Of a stretch of DNA of 5,563 nt, positions 1-5,563 are shown piece by piece (position 1 is the stretch's first letter; each line of letters begins with the position of its first letter). The DNA is from a virus. Taxonomy: Duplodnaviria; Heunggongvirae; Uroviricota; Caudoviricetes. The DNA is taken from IMG/VR virus record IMGVR_UViG_2657244940_000011. One strand, given 5' to 3'. Under the pieces are notes generated by a model, which did not search any database, was not told the origin of the DNA, and saw only the letters and a program-made list of their open reading frames with translations. Both the position numbers and the translations under genes were made by a program.

Positions 1-41
1 GGTTAGCCTCTTACGTGCCGAAAGGCAAGGAGAAGCAGGCT

Positions 42-197
42 ATGAAGCAGCAAAAGGCGATGTTAATCGCCCTTATCGTCATCTGTTTAACCGTCATAGT
101 GACGGCACTGGTAACGAGGAAAGACCTCTGCGAGGTACGAATCCGAACCGGCCAGACGGAGGTCGCTGTCTTCACAGCTTACGAACCTGAGGAGTAA
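42..197 (+). CDS. hokD: Hok/Gef-family type I membrane toxin (51 aa; HokD/RelF-like)
   Basis: Translation MKQQKAMLIALIVICLTVIVTALVTRKDLCEVRIRTGQTEVAVFTAYEPEE has the Hok signature (hydrophobic helix, TRK-LCE-R-R-G-EVA-F-AYE) and matches my recollection of HokD/RelF. AAGGAG at 27-32 sits 9 nt before ATG 42; TAA stop at 195-197. The ORF track starts at in-frame GTG 15, which would add a 9-aa extension and is judged less likely. Confidence 0.85.
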   Translation: MKQQKAMLIALIVICLTVIVTALVTRKDLCEVRIRTGQTEVAVFTAYEPEE

Positions 198-286: not shown

Positions 287-412
287 CGTCGCATTATGAG
301 GTTGTAATTTTAGCTACCATGAGACTATCCTAAGGATCTCAAACAGATCTATTTTGTATCAAATTTGGTGCATGGCTTTGCCAATAATCGGAAAACAAAA
401 GGACTCATTAGT

Positions 413-592
413 ATGAGCTGCCCACTCAAAAAACACACGCGGTTGAGTATTCCGCCTCGCGATAAAAGCGTTGTGGCAGTCCCTCGCCCAGTGATTGATG
501 AAAACTGCGCACATCGTGAACAAGTGAAAAATGCTTTTGATTTCGGTTTTTCTCGTTATGAGAAAGCCATGGAAGAACTTTCAAAAGTGTAA
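413..592 (+). CDS. Small protein (59 aa) immediately upstream of the Doc-family toxin; candidate cognate antitoxin of unrecognised family
   Basis: ATG 413 is preceded by AGGA at 400-403 (9-nt spacing); TAA stop at 590-592, 10 nt before the toxin ORF. The ORF track extends it to TTG 365 (75 aa), which has no Shine-Dalgarno. Size and position fit a type II antitoxin, but the sequence does not resemble Phd/YefM or YhfG by eye. Confidence 0.4.
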   Translation: MSCPLKKHTRLSIPPRDKSVVAVPRPVIDENCAHREQVKNAFDFGFSRYEKAMEELSKV

Positions 593-601
593 TGATGGGT
601 A

Positions 602-1096
602 TTGTACTCTATGGCTGAGATTGTTGAAGGAGTGCATTACCTTACGGTTGATGATCTTGTTGAAATCAATCATTCCCTAATTGAATTACAGACGCCAGAT
701 GAGCCCGTTGGTGTTCTGAGTCCAGATAACTTAAGTTCTTCTCAGGCCCGTCCCAGCATGGTTCGATGGTATGAACAGACTAATGACATGTTTGTACTGG
801 CATCGGTATTGATTGAAAGTCTGATTCAGAATCATCCGTTTGCTAATGCGAACAAACGAACAGCTATGATGGCTGGTTACGTCTTCTTGTTGTTGAATGG
901 CTATGAGTTAACAGCACCAGGCGATGAAATCGTGGAAATGGCAGAGGGACTGGCCTGCAAAACCTATACTCGAGAAGATCTCGAGAACTGGTTGTGTTAT
1001 TGGTCTCGCGCGTATGACAGCCGGGAATTATGTAAAACAAGCGCAACTATTGTTTTGTATGAAACTATCAAGCTTAAAATAGAACAGCAAAACTAA
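602..1096 (+). CDS. Doc (death-on-curing) / Fic-family toxin
   Basis: The product contains HPFANANKR (nt 833-859), which fits the Doc variant of the Fic motif H-x-F-x-[DN]-[AG]-N-K-R. Start is TTG 602 or ATG 611 (both in frame; upstream in-frame TGA at 593-595); TAA stop at 1094-1096. Confidence 0.8.
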   Translation: MYSMAEIVEGVHYLTVDDLVEINHSLIELQTPDEPVGVLSPDNLSSSQARPSMVRWYEQTNDMFVLASVLIESLIQNHPFANANKRTAMMAGYVFLLLNGYELTAPGDEIVEMAEGLACKTYTREDLENWLCYWSRAYDSRELCKTSATIVLYETIKLKIEQQN

Positions 1097-1215: not shown

Positions 1216-1296
1216 CGATGCACTTAAGTAGCGCGCAGGGAGAAGAGGGATGGACCCCAAACAGGGGAGTGCTATTTATCTGGAAGGATTCTGTTG

Positions 1297-1557
1297 ATGA
1301 AAATCAAAGAATTACGTGAAATTTTTAGTGAAGATGGCCTCTATACTGTGCGCGTTGAGAATGGCGCAATTGTCAGCCACTGCCGTATTAAATGTTTACA
1401 GTCTCAACAAAGGAAGAGTGGAGCTGCGTTAATTCATTTGGTGGATGGGCTTGTGACGGATGGTTTTATTTTGCGTGCAAATGAATTTGTCACATCGTTG
1501 CCGTCTCTGAAAGAAGCTGGGATTAAGGCTGGTTTTTCTGCTTTTGAAGATGAGTGA
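1297..1557 (+). CDS. Hypothetical small phage protein (86 aa), nin-region; sits where rem lies in K-12 Qin as I recall it
   Basis: ATG 1297 is preceded by AAGGA at 1284-1288 (8-nt spacing); TGA stop at 1555-1557. The ORF track starts one codon earlier at TTG 1294. No recognisable motif; product identity not verifiable here. Confidence 0.55.
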   Translation: MKIKELREIFSEDGLYTVRVENGAIVSHCRIKCLQSQQRKSGAALIHLVDGLVTDGFILRANEFVTSLPSLKEAGIKAGFSAFEDE

Positions 1558-1623: not shown

Positions 1624-1902
1624 ATGGCGCAAAATTCCAGACTACACAATTCTGATAATTCAGCCGCCTTTGCCAGCAGGCACGGGCGGCGCTCTCATGC
1701 ATTCAAATATGACTGGTATCAGCACGATCCCTGCACCGAAGAACAGGCTGAATGGCTGATTCAGCGCTACCGCAGACACGGATACGAGATTAAGAAAGCC
1801 CTCAGCCTCGATTATCGTCTCTGGATAATCTACGTCAGACTCCCTTATTCCGAACGCCCACCGCGTCCGTCCCGCACATTCCAGCAACGCATCTGGAGGT
1901 AA
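1624..1902 (+). CDS. Hypothetical basic protein (92 aa)
   Basis: ATG 1624 is preceded by GGAG at 1613-1616 (7-nt spacing). The TAA stop at 1900-1902 lies 1 nt before the GTG start of the next gene, implying translational coupling. Confidence 0.5.
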   Translation: MAQNSRLHNSDNSAAFASRHGRRSHAFKYDWYQHDPCTEEQAEWLIQRYRRHGYEIKKALSLDYRLWIIYVRLPYSERPPRPSRTFQQRIWR

Positions 1903-1903
1903 C

Positions 1904-2968
1904 GTGCGGGTATTACTTCGACCTGTTCCGGTACCGGAACTTGGGCTGGTGGTGCTAAAACCGGGCCGTGAATCCATGCAGGTATTTCATAACCCTCGAG
2001 TTCTGGTGGAGCCGGAACCGAAAAGCATGCGCGGTCTGCCGTCCGGAGTCGTTCCTGCCGTTCGCCAGCCATTGGCGGAGGATAAATCACTACTGCCATT
2101 TTTCAGCGATGAGCGGGTGATTCGTGCTGCTGGCGGTGCTGGTGCGCTGTCTGACTGGCTGTTACGCCACGTTAAATCCTGCCAGTGGCCACACGGCGAT
2201 TATCATCACAGCGAAACCGTCATACATCGTTATGGTATCGGCGCAATGGTGTTGTGCTGGCACTGCGACAACCAGCTGCGTGACCAGACCTCCGAATCAC
2301 TCGGGCAACTTGCTCATCAAAACCTGTCAGCATGGATGATTGACGTCATACGTCACGCAATCAGCGGTACGCAGGAGAGGGAGTTATCGCTGGCCGAATT
2401 ATCCTGGTGGGCGGTCTGCAATCAGGTGGCTGATGCGCTTCCGGAGTCTGTATTGCGTCGTTCACTGGGATTACCGGTGAAAAAAATCCGCTCCGTATAC
2501 AGTGAGAGCGACATCGTACCGGGAGAACAGACAGCCACCAGCATACTGAAGCAGCGCACAAAAAATATTGCGCTACCGCTTCACGTCCACCAGCACCAGC
2601 AACAGAACCCACCACAGGAAAAGACGGTGGTCAGCATTGCCGTTGATCCGGAGTCACCGGCTCAGTATCTCCAGCGCCAGAAACCACAACGGGAAGAGAT
2701 GCCTGTATACACGCGCTGGGTAAAAACGCAGAAATGCATGACGTGCGGTAATCAGGCAGATGATCCGCATCACATCATTGGTCATGGACTGGGAGGGATG
2801 GGAACAAAGGCTGACGATTTGTTTGTTATTCCGTTGTGCCGTAAATGCCATAACAAACTACATGCCGGAGTAAAAGATTTTGAAGAAAAACACGGCAGTC
2901 AGTTGTTGTTGCTGATTCGTTTTTTAATGCACGCGAGAAATTCGGGTGTTCTGAAGTGGAAAGCATAA
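1904..2968 (+). CDS. DUF968-type prophage protein (YdfU-like) with C-terminal HNH/zinc-finger-like motif
   Basis: 354-aa ORF starting at GTG 1904 with GGAGG at 1895-1899. The C-terminus carries CMTC...DPHH...CRKCHNKLH (nt ~2735-2865), a CxxC...HH...CxxCH-N-x2-H arrangement typical of HNH-like nucleases. It sits directly upstream of rusA as in lambdoid nin regions. Family name is from memory of K-12 YdfU. Confidence 0.75.
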   Translation: MRVLLRPVPVPELGLVVLKPGRESMQVFHNPRVLVEPEPKSMRGLPSGVVPAVRQPLAEDKSLLPFFSDERVIRAAGGAGALSDWLLRHVKSCQWPHGDYHHSETVIHRYGIGAMVLCWHCDNQLRDQTSESLGQLAHQNLSAWMIDVIRHAISGTQERELSLAELSWWAVCNQVADALPESVLRRSLGLPVKKIRSVYSESDIVPGEQTATSILKQRTKNIALPLHVHQHQQQNPPQEKTVVSIAVDPESPAQYLQRQKPQREEMPVYTRWVKTQKCMTCGNQADDPHHIIGHGLGGMGTKADDLFVIPLCRKCHNKLHAGVKDFEEKHGSQLLLLIRFLMHARNSGVLKWKA

Positions 2969-3334
2969 ATGACCGAACGCATAGAATTTGTTTTGCCTTA
3001 CCCGCCGACGGTGAACACTTACTGGCGACGCCGTGGCAGCACATATTTTGTATCAAAAGCCGGGGAGCGTTATCGCCGGGCAGTGGCGCTTATTGTTCGC
3101 CAGCAGCGGCTGAAATTAAGCCTGTCCGGAAGGCTGGCGATAAAGGTGATTGCAGAGCCACCGGATAAGCGTCGTCGCGACCTGGACAACATTCTGAAAG
3201 CACCGCTGGATGCGCTGACGCATGCGGGAGTGCTCATTGATGACGAGCAGTTTGATGAAATCAATATTGTACGTGGTCAGCCAGTATCTGGTGGACGGCT
3301 GGGTGTGAAGATTTACAAAATTGAGAGTGAGTGA
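2969..3334 (+). CDS. rusA: Crossover junction endodeoxyribonuclease RusA (Holliday junction resolvase)
   Basis: 121-aa product with PDKRRRDLDN...DAL...DD...GGRL, matching the RusA catalytic-region pattern as I remember E. coli RusA. ATG 2969 directly abuts the upstream TAA (2966-2968). Confidence 0.9.
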   Translation: MTERIEFVLPYPPTVNTYWRRRGSTYFVSKAGERYRRAVALIVRQQRLKLSLSGRLAIKVIAEPPDKRRRDLDNILKAPLDALTHAGVLIDDEQFDEINIVRGQPVSGGRLGVKIYKIESE

Positions 3335-3897
3335 GCGTAAATATGATATATCCGGAAATTACAGGCAAAAGCGGCGAGCATTTACGCCTAAAAACGCTGG
3401 AAGCAGTCTGGATCCAAGGGCGATTACGGATGTGGGGGCGTTGGTCGTATATTGGCGGCGGTAAGACGGGAAATATGTTCAACCAATTACTGACCTCTAA
3501 AAAGCTGACAAAAACGGCAATTAACGAGGCGCTCCGGAGGATGAAAAAAGCTGGTCTGGACAAACCTGAACTTGAGGCTTTTTTGCGGGATATGATCAAC
3601 GGCAATCAAAAAAGCTGGCTGGCACATTGTACCGATTCAGAGGCGTTAATAATCGACAGGGTTATTGGCGAAGTCCTGGCAGGCTATCCCGGGCTGCTCA
3701 ATGTCCTGAGTCAGCGTTATGTGGGGCGGGGGATGACTAAGCGCAAAATGGCTGAACTGCTGAATGATGCACACCCGGAATGGAGTTTAAGAACCTGTGA
3801 AAGACGCATTGAGCATTGGCTAAAGGTGGCAGAATTTATTTTGTACAAACCAATGGTTATGGCTTTTGGTATAGAGAAAAAAGTTATTGCTTTTTGA
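3331..3897 (+). CDS. Late-gene antitermination protein Q (Q21/QuuD-like family)
   Basis: GTG 3331 overlaps the rusA stop (GTGA); an alternative start is ATG 3343. The N-terminal W-G-x-W...G...LLTSKK pattern resembles what I recall of QuuD. Position after rusA and just before a short leader plus strong terminator matches the canonical Q-PR'-tR' arrangement. TGA stop at 3895-3897. Confidence 0.7.
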   Translation: MSVNMIYPEITGKSGEHLRLKTLEAVWIQGRLRMWGRWSYIGGGKTGNMFNQLLTSKKLTKTAINEALRRMKKAGLDKPELEAFLRDMINGNQKSWLAHCTDSEALIIDRVIGEVLAGYPGLLNVLSQRYVGRGMTKRKMAELLNDAHPEWSLRTCERRIEHWLKVAEFILYKPMVMAFGIEKKVIAF

Positions 3898-4329: not shown

Positions 4330-4422
4330 ATTTGTGGTAAATGGGCGGCTGGTGGGTGTGGTGGTTGTTGCTTTCCCGTTGCTGAAAAAGAAAGCATCAG
4401 GCGATTAGCAGGGTATCAGTTA

Positions 4423-4673
4423 CCCGTTGAAATTTTTAAATACCTCACAATTCAGGCGGTTGACTGTTGTCTGGTTTGCGGGGAGTTTGTTAAAAGAAAC
4501 TGGCATGGTGAATCCCCCTGTGCGGAGGGGCAATCAGCGACTGGTGTTTTGTCACCGACCCTTATCCTTTCTGTGCGGGTTCAGGTGCTGATACTGAACT
4601 CACCGGGAGGCACCCGGCATCATGCAATGGCACATAGCGCCACTCTCCAGCCCCTCTCCGGAGGGGCTTTTCT
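4423..4673 (+). repeat. Tandem repeat unit A (~250 bp) carrying three conserved GC-rich hairpins
   Basis: Shares with unit B: cccgtt(g/a)aat at the start, ctcacaattcag (4444-4455), TTGAC (4460), gcatggtgaatccccctg(t/a)gcggaggggc (H1, stem 4515-4530), ctgaactcaccgggaggcacccggca (H2, 4594-4619, 26/26 identical) and agcccctctccggaggggcttt (H3, 4649-4670, 22/22 identical). Confidence 0.6.
4650..4673 (+). terminator. Intrinsic terminator (hairpin H3 of repeat unit A)
   Basis: gcccctc(4650-4656)-tccg-gaggggc(4661-4667) followed by TTTTCT. Confidence 0.55.
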
Positions 4674-4861
4674 GTGCCGGATACATCACAGTTTCTGGAA
4701 CCTTAGGTACTACAGTATCAGTCAGGGTGCTATATTTTCAGATGTGATGAAAGCCTGTCAGCAGGCAGGGCGTATCGGAAATGACCCAGTAGAGAAAACG
4801 TTGACTCAGATACCGGTGCTGAGTTACCGGGAAACCGGCATCACATGACCGCTATCCTTCT

Positions 4862-4889
4862 AGGCCCATCCGCTCCGGTGGGCCTTTTT
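4862..4889 (+). terminator. Intrinsic terminator preceding repeat unit B
   Basis: aggccca(4862-4868) ... tgggcct(4879-4885) with an internally paired loop (ccg-ctc-cgg), followed by TTTTT (4885-4889). Confidence 0.6.
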
Positions 4890-4906
4890 ACTGCAGAAAA
4901 CAGGTT

Positions 4907-5160
4907 CCCCGTTAAATGCTATGTTGCTCACAATTCAGTAAGTTGACAGTTGCCTGTCAGACTGGGCATTTGTTAAAAAAATTTCGCATGGTGAATCCCC
5001 CTGAGCGGAGGGGCGACTGGTGACGGTATAATCTCTGATTATCAAAACGAGAATGACGCGGGTTTAGTGGCACCGGGCTGAACTCACCGGGAGGCACCCG
5101 GCACCATGTGCATGATGATACAGATACGCGGCTTTAGCCCCTCTCCGGAGGGGCTTTCTT
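4907..5160 (+). repeat. Tandem repeat unit B (~250 bp), diverged copy of unit A, offset ~484 bp
   Basis: Same three hairpins at nearly the same spacing as unit A (H1 stem 4998-5013; H2 stem 5087-5101; H3 5137-5154), with diverged spacers. Also carries the palindrome tgacag-ttgc-ctgtca (4944-4959) and a perfect TATAAT (5027-5032). Confidence 0.6.
5137..5160 (+). terminator. Probable intrinsic terminator (hairpin H3 of repeat unit B)
   Basis: gcccctc-tccg-gaggggc followed by an interrupted T-run TTTCTT; weaker than the unit A copy. Confidence 0.4.
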
Positions 5161-5166
5161 GTGGGC

Positions 5167-5191
5167 AAAAAAAGCCCGAGTGGGTTCGGGC
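5167..5191 (-). terminator. Hairpin with A-tract on the + strand, i.e. a terminator-like structure for the - strand (or bidirectional with 5137-5160)
   Basis: AAAAAAA (5167-5173) then gcccga(5174-5179)-gtgggt-tcgggc(5186-5191); on the - strand this reads hairpin plus TTTTTTT. No - strand gene is visible downstream within the window. Confidence 0.35.
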
Positions 5192-5246
5192 AACAGCATG
5201 AGATATACATTTTTATAATCGAATGGATTTTAACCAGAATTCATAA

Positions 5247-5271
5247 GGCTGCGCAACTGCGCGGCCTTTTT
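5247..5271 (+). terminator. Intrinsic terminator
   Basis: ggctgcgc(5247-5254)-aact-gcgcggcc(5259-5266), an 8-bp stem with one G-U pair, followed by TTTTT (5267-5271). Confidence 0.55.
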
Positions 5272-5373
5272 CGTATTGCGGGCTGTAGTCTTCCTCCTGC
5301 CATTGTCCTGTAACTTCCGGACTTCAGCTCGCTCCTTATCTGACTCACAACATTATCCCGACCGGGAGGATTC

Positions 5374-5563
5374 ATGACATTTAAACACTACGATGTGGTC
5401 AGGGCGGCGTCGCCGTCAGACCTTGCGGAGCGACTGACACAAAAACTGAAGGAGGGGTGGCAGCCATTTGGCAGCCCTGTCGCCATCACGCCTTATACCC
5501 TGATGCAGGCCATTGCGGCGGAAGGTGATGTCACCACACCTGTGGTGGTGAAGCCGTCGGATG
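5374..5563 (+). CDS. Hypothetical late-region phage protein, 5' end only (runs off the window)
   Basis: ATG 5374 is preceded by GGAGG at 5365-5369 (4-nt spacing). The frame is open for 63 codons to the window end (MTFKHYDVVRAASPSDLAERLTQKLKEGWQPFGSPVAITPYTLMQAIAAEGDVTTPVVVKPSD...). Not in the ORF track because there is no stop in the window. Confidence 0.6.
   Translation, partial: MTFKHYDVVRAASPSDLAERLTQKLKEGWQPFGSPVAITPYTLMQAIAAEGDVTTPVVVKPSD

Follow-up and report, generated by a model that had tools for sequence, protein, structure and literature searches.

Proteins of the DUF968 family were placed, together with those of DUF1364/YbcO, in group 7 of the His-Me finger nucleases by Jablonska et al. 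(2017; PMC5714182), who named RusA and Q as neighbors of this group, noted fusions to ERF and Rad52, and proposed a role in recombination like that of NinG and the RecA-dependent nucleases. A zinc-finger HNH motif of proteins then classified under DUF968 had been described by Curtis et al. (2014; PMC4118853), with fusions to Erf, Rad52, and RusA reported in the same work. In January 2026, Gp16 of the Staphylococcus aureus phage ΦNM1 was shown to be a nickase that binds both dsDNA and RecA and is stimulated by the latter (PMC12817073). Literature searches on DUF968 and ydfU returned no paper characterizing YdfU or any DUF968-proper protein. The statement in the original prediction that DUF968 proteins are not functionally characterized holds for DUF968 proper in the literature searched, but it passes over both the 2017 classification and hypothesis (PMC5714182) and the HNHc_6 homologue described in 2026 (PMC12817073).

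Here, a member of this family is described from the window, i.e. the whole 5.5-kb stretch of phage DNA that was analyzed. Its His-Me class, its RusA/Q neighborhood, and the recombination hypothesis are already known (PMC5714182), and the window protein is a routine DUF968/YdfU member. What sequence comparison adds is a pattern of reciprocal residue loss, a probable inactivity of PdcB from phage P1, a RusA adjacency that appears clade-specific, and, tentatively, a second HNH-like module.

Gene organization of the window

The window comes from a lambdoid prophage, where it forms the end of the early-right ("nin") operon, and all of the genes listed in Table 1 lie on the plus strand. Of 5426 complete genomes, 4853 contain prophage DNA matching the window, whose sequence is 93–95% identical to chromosomal prophages of many Escherichia coli strains, in which PGAP gives the same gene structure; the GTG start of the DUF968 gene is also that annotated by PGAP in a 93%-identical E. 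coli prophage. Most E. coli genomes harbor DUF968/YdfU genes, and the window gene has 92–97% identical counterparts in E. coli prophages, with a 99%-identical C-terminal domain present in one Shigella flexneri genome and one E. coli genome. Homologues were also found in many Stx-converting, Shigella, Salmonella, and Klebsiella temperate phages.

The original prediction had described a 354-residue ORF with a CxxC...HH...CxxCHNxxH motif near its C terminus and a stop codon that abuts the rusA start (TAAATG), and both were confirmed (Table 1). The rusA product scored 61.2 bits against Pfam PF05866 (threshold 22.8), and its acidic catalytic motifs, read against the catalytic aspartates of E. coli RusA, are intact (RRRDLDN at residue 68 and DDEQ at residue 91). 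For the Q-like gene, two start codons come into consideration, GTG at 3331, which would overlap the rusA stop by 4 nt, and ATG at 3343, the latter being favored because the DUF1133 alignment opens at ORF residue 5 and PGAP makes the same choice. All junctions of the operon are tight, with 1 nt between the upstream ORF and the DUF968 gene, no gap between the DUF968 gene and rusA, and 8 nt between rusA and the ATG of the Q-like gene. The TAAATG junction therefore points to operon packing and probable co-translation rather than to a specific partnership.

Table 1. Features of the window, with positions counted from its first nucleotide
Feature	Position	Strand	Basis or remark
hokD-like ORF, Hok-family type I toxin	15-197	+	PGAP: hokD in 93%-identical E. 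coli prophage
Small ORF	365-592	+	
Fic/Doc-family toxin	602-1096	+	34% identity to P1 Doc over 47 aa, E 1.6e-8
Small PHROG-only ORF	1294-1557	+	
Small ORF, 92 aa, PHROG 1212 (unknown function)	1624-1902	+	TAA stop (1900-1902), 1 nt before DUF968 GTG
Shine-Dalgarno GGAGG of DUF968 gene	1893-1897	+	Direct sequence reading
DUF968/YdfU-family gene, 354 aa, GTG start	1904-2968	+	Pfam PF06147, PHROG 96
N-terminal conserved domain, residues 55-195, without Pfam family	2066-2488	+	
N-terminal Cys/His cluster C93...H101H102...C118-W-H-C121-D-N123	2180-2272	+	
Linker, residues 196-254, poorly conserved, includes His/Gln-rich stretch	2489-2665	+	AF2 pLDDT <50; gappy alignment
C-terminal His-Me/HNH nuclease domain, residues 255-354	2666-2965	+	
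Zinc and catalytic motif	2735-2863	+	Proposed Zn ligands C278, C281, C312, C315
C278-x2-C281	2735-2746	+	
H289-H290	2768-2773	+	
Catalytic-type residues H289/H290, D305, H316, H320	within 2735-2863	+	D305 at 2816-2818
C312-x2-C315-H316-N317-x2-H320	2837-2863	+	
TAAATG stop/start junction DUF968/rusA	2966-2971	+	DUF968 stop TAA 2966-2968
rusA, RusA-family Holliday-junction resolvase, 121 aa	2969-3334	+	Pfam PF05866 2e-16, PHROG 34 1e-56
DUF1133/Q-like antiterminator	3343-3897	+	Pfam DUF1133 2e-105
Apparent late-promoter leader region	downstream of Q-like gene		
STnc100 sRNA family, first copy	4474-4679	+	165 bits
STnc100 sRNA family, second copy	4957-5166	+	138 bits
AsxR (anti-stx2 sRNA) match	5169-5221	-	

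At the downstream end of the window, the two STnc100 copies are both full-length and terminate in the same terminator hairpin, and the AsxR match lies on the opposite strand; together, these resemble a late-promoter leader region, present in duplicate, after the Q-like gene. Most E. coli relatives are similar to the window up to ~4359 but not over positions 4360–5563. In place of the latter they have a DNA methyltransferase gene and a cluster of Ile/Arg/Arg tRNA genes; the window contains no tRNA gene, and ~4359 marks a mosaic breakpoint downstream of Q. Upstream, the Fic/Doc toxin and a small ORF that precedes it, ~0.8 kb from the DUF968 gene, mirror the phd-doc-pdcA-pdcB order of P1 (L001 2592–4448). 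The same synteny was found elsewhere only in one close E. coli relative and in one of 80 IMG/VR loci, so it was set aside as probable coincidence.

The C-terminal HNH domain

The window protein matched DUF968 (PF06147) over residues 160–346 with 212.9 bits (E 4e-63; gathering threshold 27.8 bits) and the PHROG 96 family, "HNH endonuclease," with an E value of 1e-163. The full protein also exceeded the gathering threshold of HNHc_6 (PF16784; 29.3 versus 26.6 bits), in an alignment that spans only profile positions 118–184 of 204. When the C-terminal 100 residues were searched alone, DUF968 (1.4e-39) and HNHc_6 (9e-8, 32.4 bits) were again matched, with weaker matches to HNH PF01844 (E 0.0047, below threshold) and HNH_5. 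Judged by these profile scores, the match of the Cys/His motif is far above chance. The AF2 model is confident for residues 260–345 and has a strand-strand-helix layout, that of the beta-beta-alpha-metal fold of the His-Me finger/HNH superfamily. A structural search returned Ref of phage P1 (PDB 3PLW), a RecA-dependent HNH nuclease, as the best match.

Residue conservation was tabulated across 70 representatives of 50%-identity clusters, namely those covering the domain. D305 was present in all 70, followed by C278 (69), H290 (67), H289 (65), H316 (64), H320 (63), C312 (62), and C281 (58), and position 315 was His in 34, Cys in 25, and another residue in 11. D305 is the occupant of the HNH Asn position. 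H290 aligns with H157 of Gp16 and with the HH of McrA and IscB and lies at the end of the first strand, where the catalytic His of the HNH superfamily is found, which makes it a candidate general base. H316 and H320, on the helix, are candidate ligands of the catalytic metal, and C278, C281, C312, and C315 are candidate structural zinc ligands. Because the H157A substitution in Gp16, at the equivalent of H290, did not relieve toxicity (PMC12817073), catalytic roles are given to the window residues by analogy. Profile and alignment evidence thus shows homology of the C-terminal ~100 residues to zinc-finger HNH (His-Me finger) nuclease domains, with the residue classes for catalysis all present. 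Of the layout originally proposed, the HNH/His-Me assignment is borne out by Pfam, PHROG, AF2, and conservation, but the Asn of the CHNxxH motif is not: N317 is variable (Asp in 25 of the 70, Asn in 16, and Arg in 12), and the HNH Asn position falls instead on the invariant D305.

Around 10 of the 70 representatives lack C281, and often also C312/315, while retaining H289, H290, D305, H316, and H320. A small group of PdcB-like proteins shows the opposite, with all four Cys and none of H289/H290/H316/H320. These reciprocal losses show that the zinc cysteines and the catalytic-type histidines are separable features, both of which are found in the window protein. A purely structural zinc ribbon had been named as the finding that would speak against a nuclease; since H290, D305, H316, and H320 are better kept than the zinc cysteines across these 70 distant relatives, the cluster is not merely structural.

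The N-terminal domain

Pfam covers residues 160–346 only, but conservation is also high over residues ~55–195. Relatives down to 18% identity in the N-terminal region share C93, C118, and W119 without exception and D122 at a conservation of at least 90%, and the consensus motif there is "LCWHHDN." An AF2 model of the N-terminal domain only (pLDDT 86.9, pTM 0.80) contains three helices and a beta-hairpin ending at C118, followed by another helix. Foldseek searches with this model gave no match, the profile of the domain gave chance alpha-amylase matches only against PDB sequences, and the window protein had no match to the NinB/Orf-like N-terminal domain of Gram-positive HNHc_6 proteins.

With C93, C/H101, C118, and H/C121 as candidate zinc residues, the model and the conserved positions suggest that residues ~60–190 may form a second, degenerate HNH-like zinc module. 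An internal duplication detectable by plain sequence was rejected, as the Smith-Waterman score of residues 61–160 against 251–354 was equalled or exceeded by 138 of 1000 shuffles, and neither the position matching the catalytic His (H102) nor that matching H320 (R126) is conserved. The chances are roughly even that the domain arose long ago as a copy of the HNH zinc module, has since degenerated, and now serves in binding rather than catalysis. A more far-reaching proposal, which we consider quite unlikely, is that DUF968 proteins are tandem HNH "pseudo-dimers," in which a degenerate non-catalytic zinc module (~90–126) and an active HNH would together make a single-strand nickase that recognizes D-loops or branched DNA. 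Its products would pass to RusA, and it would stand in for NinG/Rap across a sizeable class of lambdoid phages that includes the Stx phages.

In some sequences (P0145, P0178, P0180, and P0232), the N-terminal 150–225 residues of DUF968 are joined to domains of tail fibres or of tip attachment protein J. Chimeric assembly or recombination between prophages is the most likely origin, and a functional meaning of the fusions was rejected.

Genomic neighborhood of DUF968 genes

The association with RusA was compared in three sets of loci. Within the close clade, comprising 80 IMG/VR loci with 82–97% identical proteins, a DUF968 ORF could be scored in 79, and rusA directly follows its stop codon in 73 of these; in several of the other 6, the contig ends before any downstream gene. 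As the gene after RusA varies among Q types, DUF968-RusA moves as a unit in this clade. A second clade of 80 IMG/VR loci, P0126-like, had RusA within 4 kb in none (0/80). Among 80 diverse loci from different Enterobacterales species, RusA was found within 4 kb in 44 and was undetected in 36; it was immediately downstream in 3, immediately upstream in 7–9, and upstream across one intervening ANT/Rha or KilA-N gene in ~34. The order in the Stx2 phage WGPS2 is RusA, regulator, DUF968, Q, and no RusA lies near the DUF968 gene of Vibrio phage Cla or of P1. Neither adjacency nor order is therefore held family-wide in the way that a dedicated DUF968-RusA pair would entail, and the RusA-free clade, the 36 diverse loci, and P1 PdcB indicate that such a partnership does not characterize the family. 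The link with RusA is clade-specific. Translational coupling had been put forward as the mark of a nuclease pair, and this part of the original prediction was not upheld, given that every operon junction is tight and adjacency is limited to the close clade. No fusions of RusA, Erf, or Rad52 to the DUF968 C-terminal domain were seen in the phage records searched with that domain.

The constant neighbor of DUF968 is instead a Q antiterminator or late activator. In most loci, the next downstream gene is a Q (Phage_antitermQ, Antiterm, Phage_antiter_Q, or DUF1133, i.e. drawn from at least four Pfam Q families), with Lpa in P1. The constancy of Q may reflect only a place at the end of the early operon. 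Lambda-type NinG was found in 2 of 240 DUF968 loci and NinB in 0 of 240; the rarity of NinG is consistent with DUF968 filling the NinG slot, although a base rate for a formal test is absent from this count.

Two further observations concern the position downstream of DUF968. In a few E. coli genomes, DUF968 and a PF03589 Q antiterminator are called as one ORF (P0304, P0306, and P0331; 607 aa). In the P0126-like clade (L085–L164, e.g. L106 5049–5651), a conserved 200-residue protein with no Pfam match lies directly downstream of DUF968, in the position of Q elsewhere, and may be an undescribed late-gene regulator.

Proposed role and alternative explanations

We give about half of our confidence to the reading in which the DUF968 gene product is a two-domain YdfU/DUF968 phage DNA-processing enzyme, a nuclease of recombination or replication intermediates working with RusA. 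It would nick or cut such intermediates (D-loops and branched molecules) in a metal-dependent manner, possibly with stimulation by RecA, as with the nearest structural relative, P1 Ref, and the sequence relative ΦNM1 Gp16. It would act in the delayed-early phase, being transcribed in one nin-type operon with RusA; the junctions that result would be resolved by RusA, and the DUF968 protein would fill the slot that NinG/Rap has in lambda. The N-terminal domain (~60–190) would probably provide recognition of a DNA structure or a partner, not catalysis. The abutting stop and start codons would ensure co-expression with rusA in the close clade and would not express a family-wide rule. The NinG-like recombination nuclease of the original prediction, itself an analogy, is on this showing partly supported; the idea is reasonable but not new.

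Kinship with Ref and Gp16 also allows a host-directed role, in which a nuclease of this type would mainly attack the chromosome of the host, at its RecA filaments or D-loops, stalling host replication and feeding SOS or biasing the phage to lytic growth, and would not process phage intermediates with RusA. Such a role would agree with the best structural match being a RecA-dependent nuclease, with the inhibition of host growth by Gp16, which requires RecA (PMC12817073), and with the many family members that have no RusA nearby. We nevertheless judge it unlikely: the window protein had no Pfam match to the Ref family (RecA_dep_nuc, PF16786) even at E 10, its N-terminal domain resembles neither the tail of Ref nor the NinB-like domain of Gp16, and the gene is intact in thousands of resident prophages, though it would be repressed there.

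The fixed position before Q raises the further prospect that the protein is a non-catalytic zinc-finger DNA-binding or regulatory protein for late-gene control. The Q genes directly downstream in most loci, the DUF968-Q fused ORFs, and the P1 PdcB subfamily, which keeps four Cys without the catalytic-type His and adjoins the late activator Lpa, are all compatible with this. However, the His/Asp set is intact in the window protein and in ~90% of the representatives, and its better retention relative to the zinc cysteines argues for selection on catalysis. Moreover, the swapping of unrelated Q types beside the same gene has the character of a mosaic boundary rather than of co-evolution, and a regulatory role is accordingly held to be improbable. 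Phage HNH genes are often mobile or associated with terminase, and caution has been urged in inferring function from gene position (PMC12315714). A selfish free-standing HNH homing endonuclease or a packaging HNH of the HK97 gp74 type is nonetheless highly improbable here and was rejected on synteny, as the gene keeps its place before Q in Escherichia, Klebsiella, Salmonella, Yersinia, and Vibrio phages and P1. In addition, the protein is conserved along its entire length and carries a large additional N-terminal domain, and the window has no terminase gene next to it.

Should the DUF968 protein indeed be a RecA- or structure-directed nickase that acts ahead of RusA, the account of how recombination intermediates are processed in lambdoid phages without NinG would become complete. 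Effects on prophage induction, inter-prophage recombination, and phage-antibiotic synergy, such as Ref has in P1, could then also follow. The value of the locus lies in offering a well-defined and easy biochemical target, not in discovery.

Comparison with known systems

Lambda NinG/Rap (PF05766), a branch-specific endonuclease of the HNH type, has its gene ahead of Q and close to the end of the nin region, a place like that of the window gene. Its domain architecture differs from that of the window protein, which had no Pfam match to NinG and an E value above 1 in BLASTP against lambda NinG. P1 Ref, the best match in structure, has a disordered basic N terminus. P1 also encodes PdcB, a true DUF968 member (3.6e-50) that is 26% identical to the window protein over 358 residues (E 5e-39), with both domains covered. 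The pdcB gene (L001 3405–4448; "unknown protein function") lies directly before the late activator gene lpa and has no RusA neighbor. PdcB has kept the four zinc Cys and lost H289, H290, H316, and H320, a pattern by which it is probably catalytically dead.

Gp16 of ΦNM1 shares 37% identity with the window protein over 59 residues (E 5e-8; hhalign 95%), and its residues C145/C148/H157/C181/H184/H185/H189 correspond to C278/C281/H290/C312/C315/H316/H320 with identical motif spacing. Gp16 matches HNHc_6 at 4.9e-117 and also DUF968 above threshold, and the window protein likewise matches both families; both are early-operon phage genes, and both phages carry RusA. The two differ in that Gp16 has a NinB/Orf-like N-terminal domain and is encoded beside SSB, whereas the window protein has an unrelated N-terminal domain and is encoded beside RusA and Q. 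YbcO (DUF1364, PDB 3G27), with 96 residues, consists of the HNH core only, without the N-terminal 250 residues. YdfU of the E. coli Qin prophage (DUF968, PF06147) differs in nothing material, and the window protein is best regarded as another allele of it.
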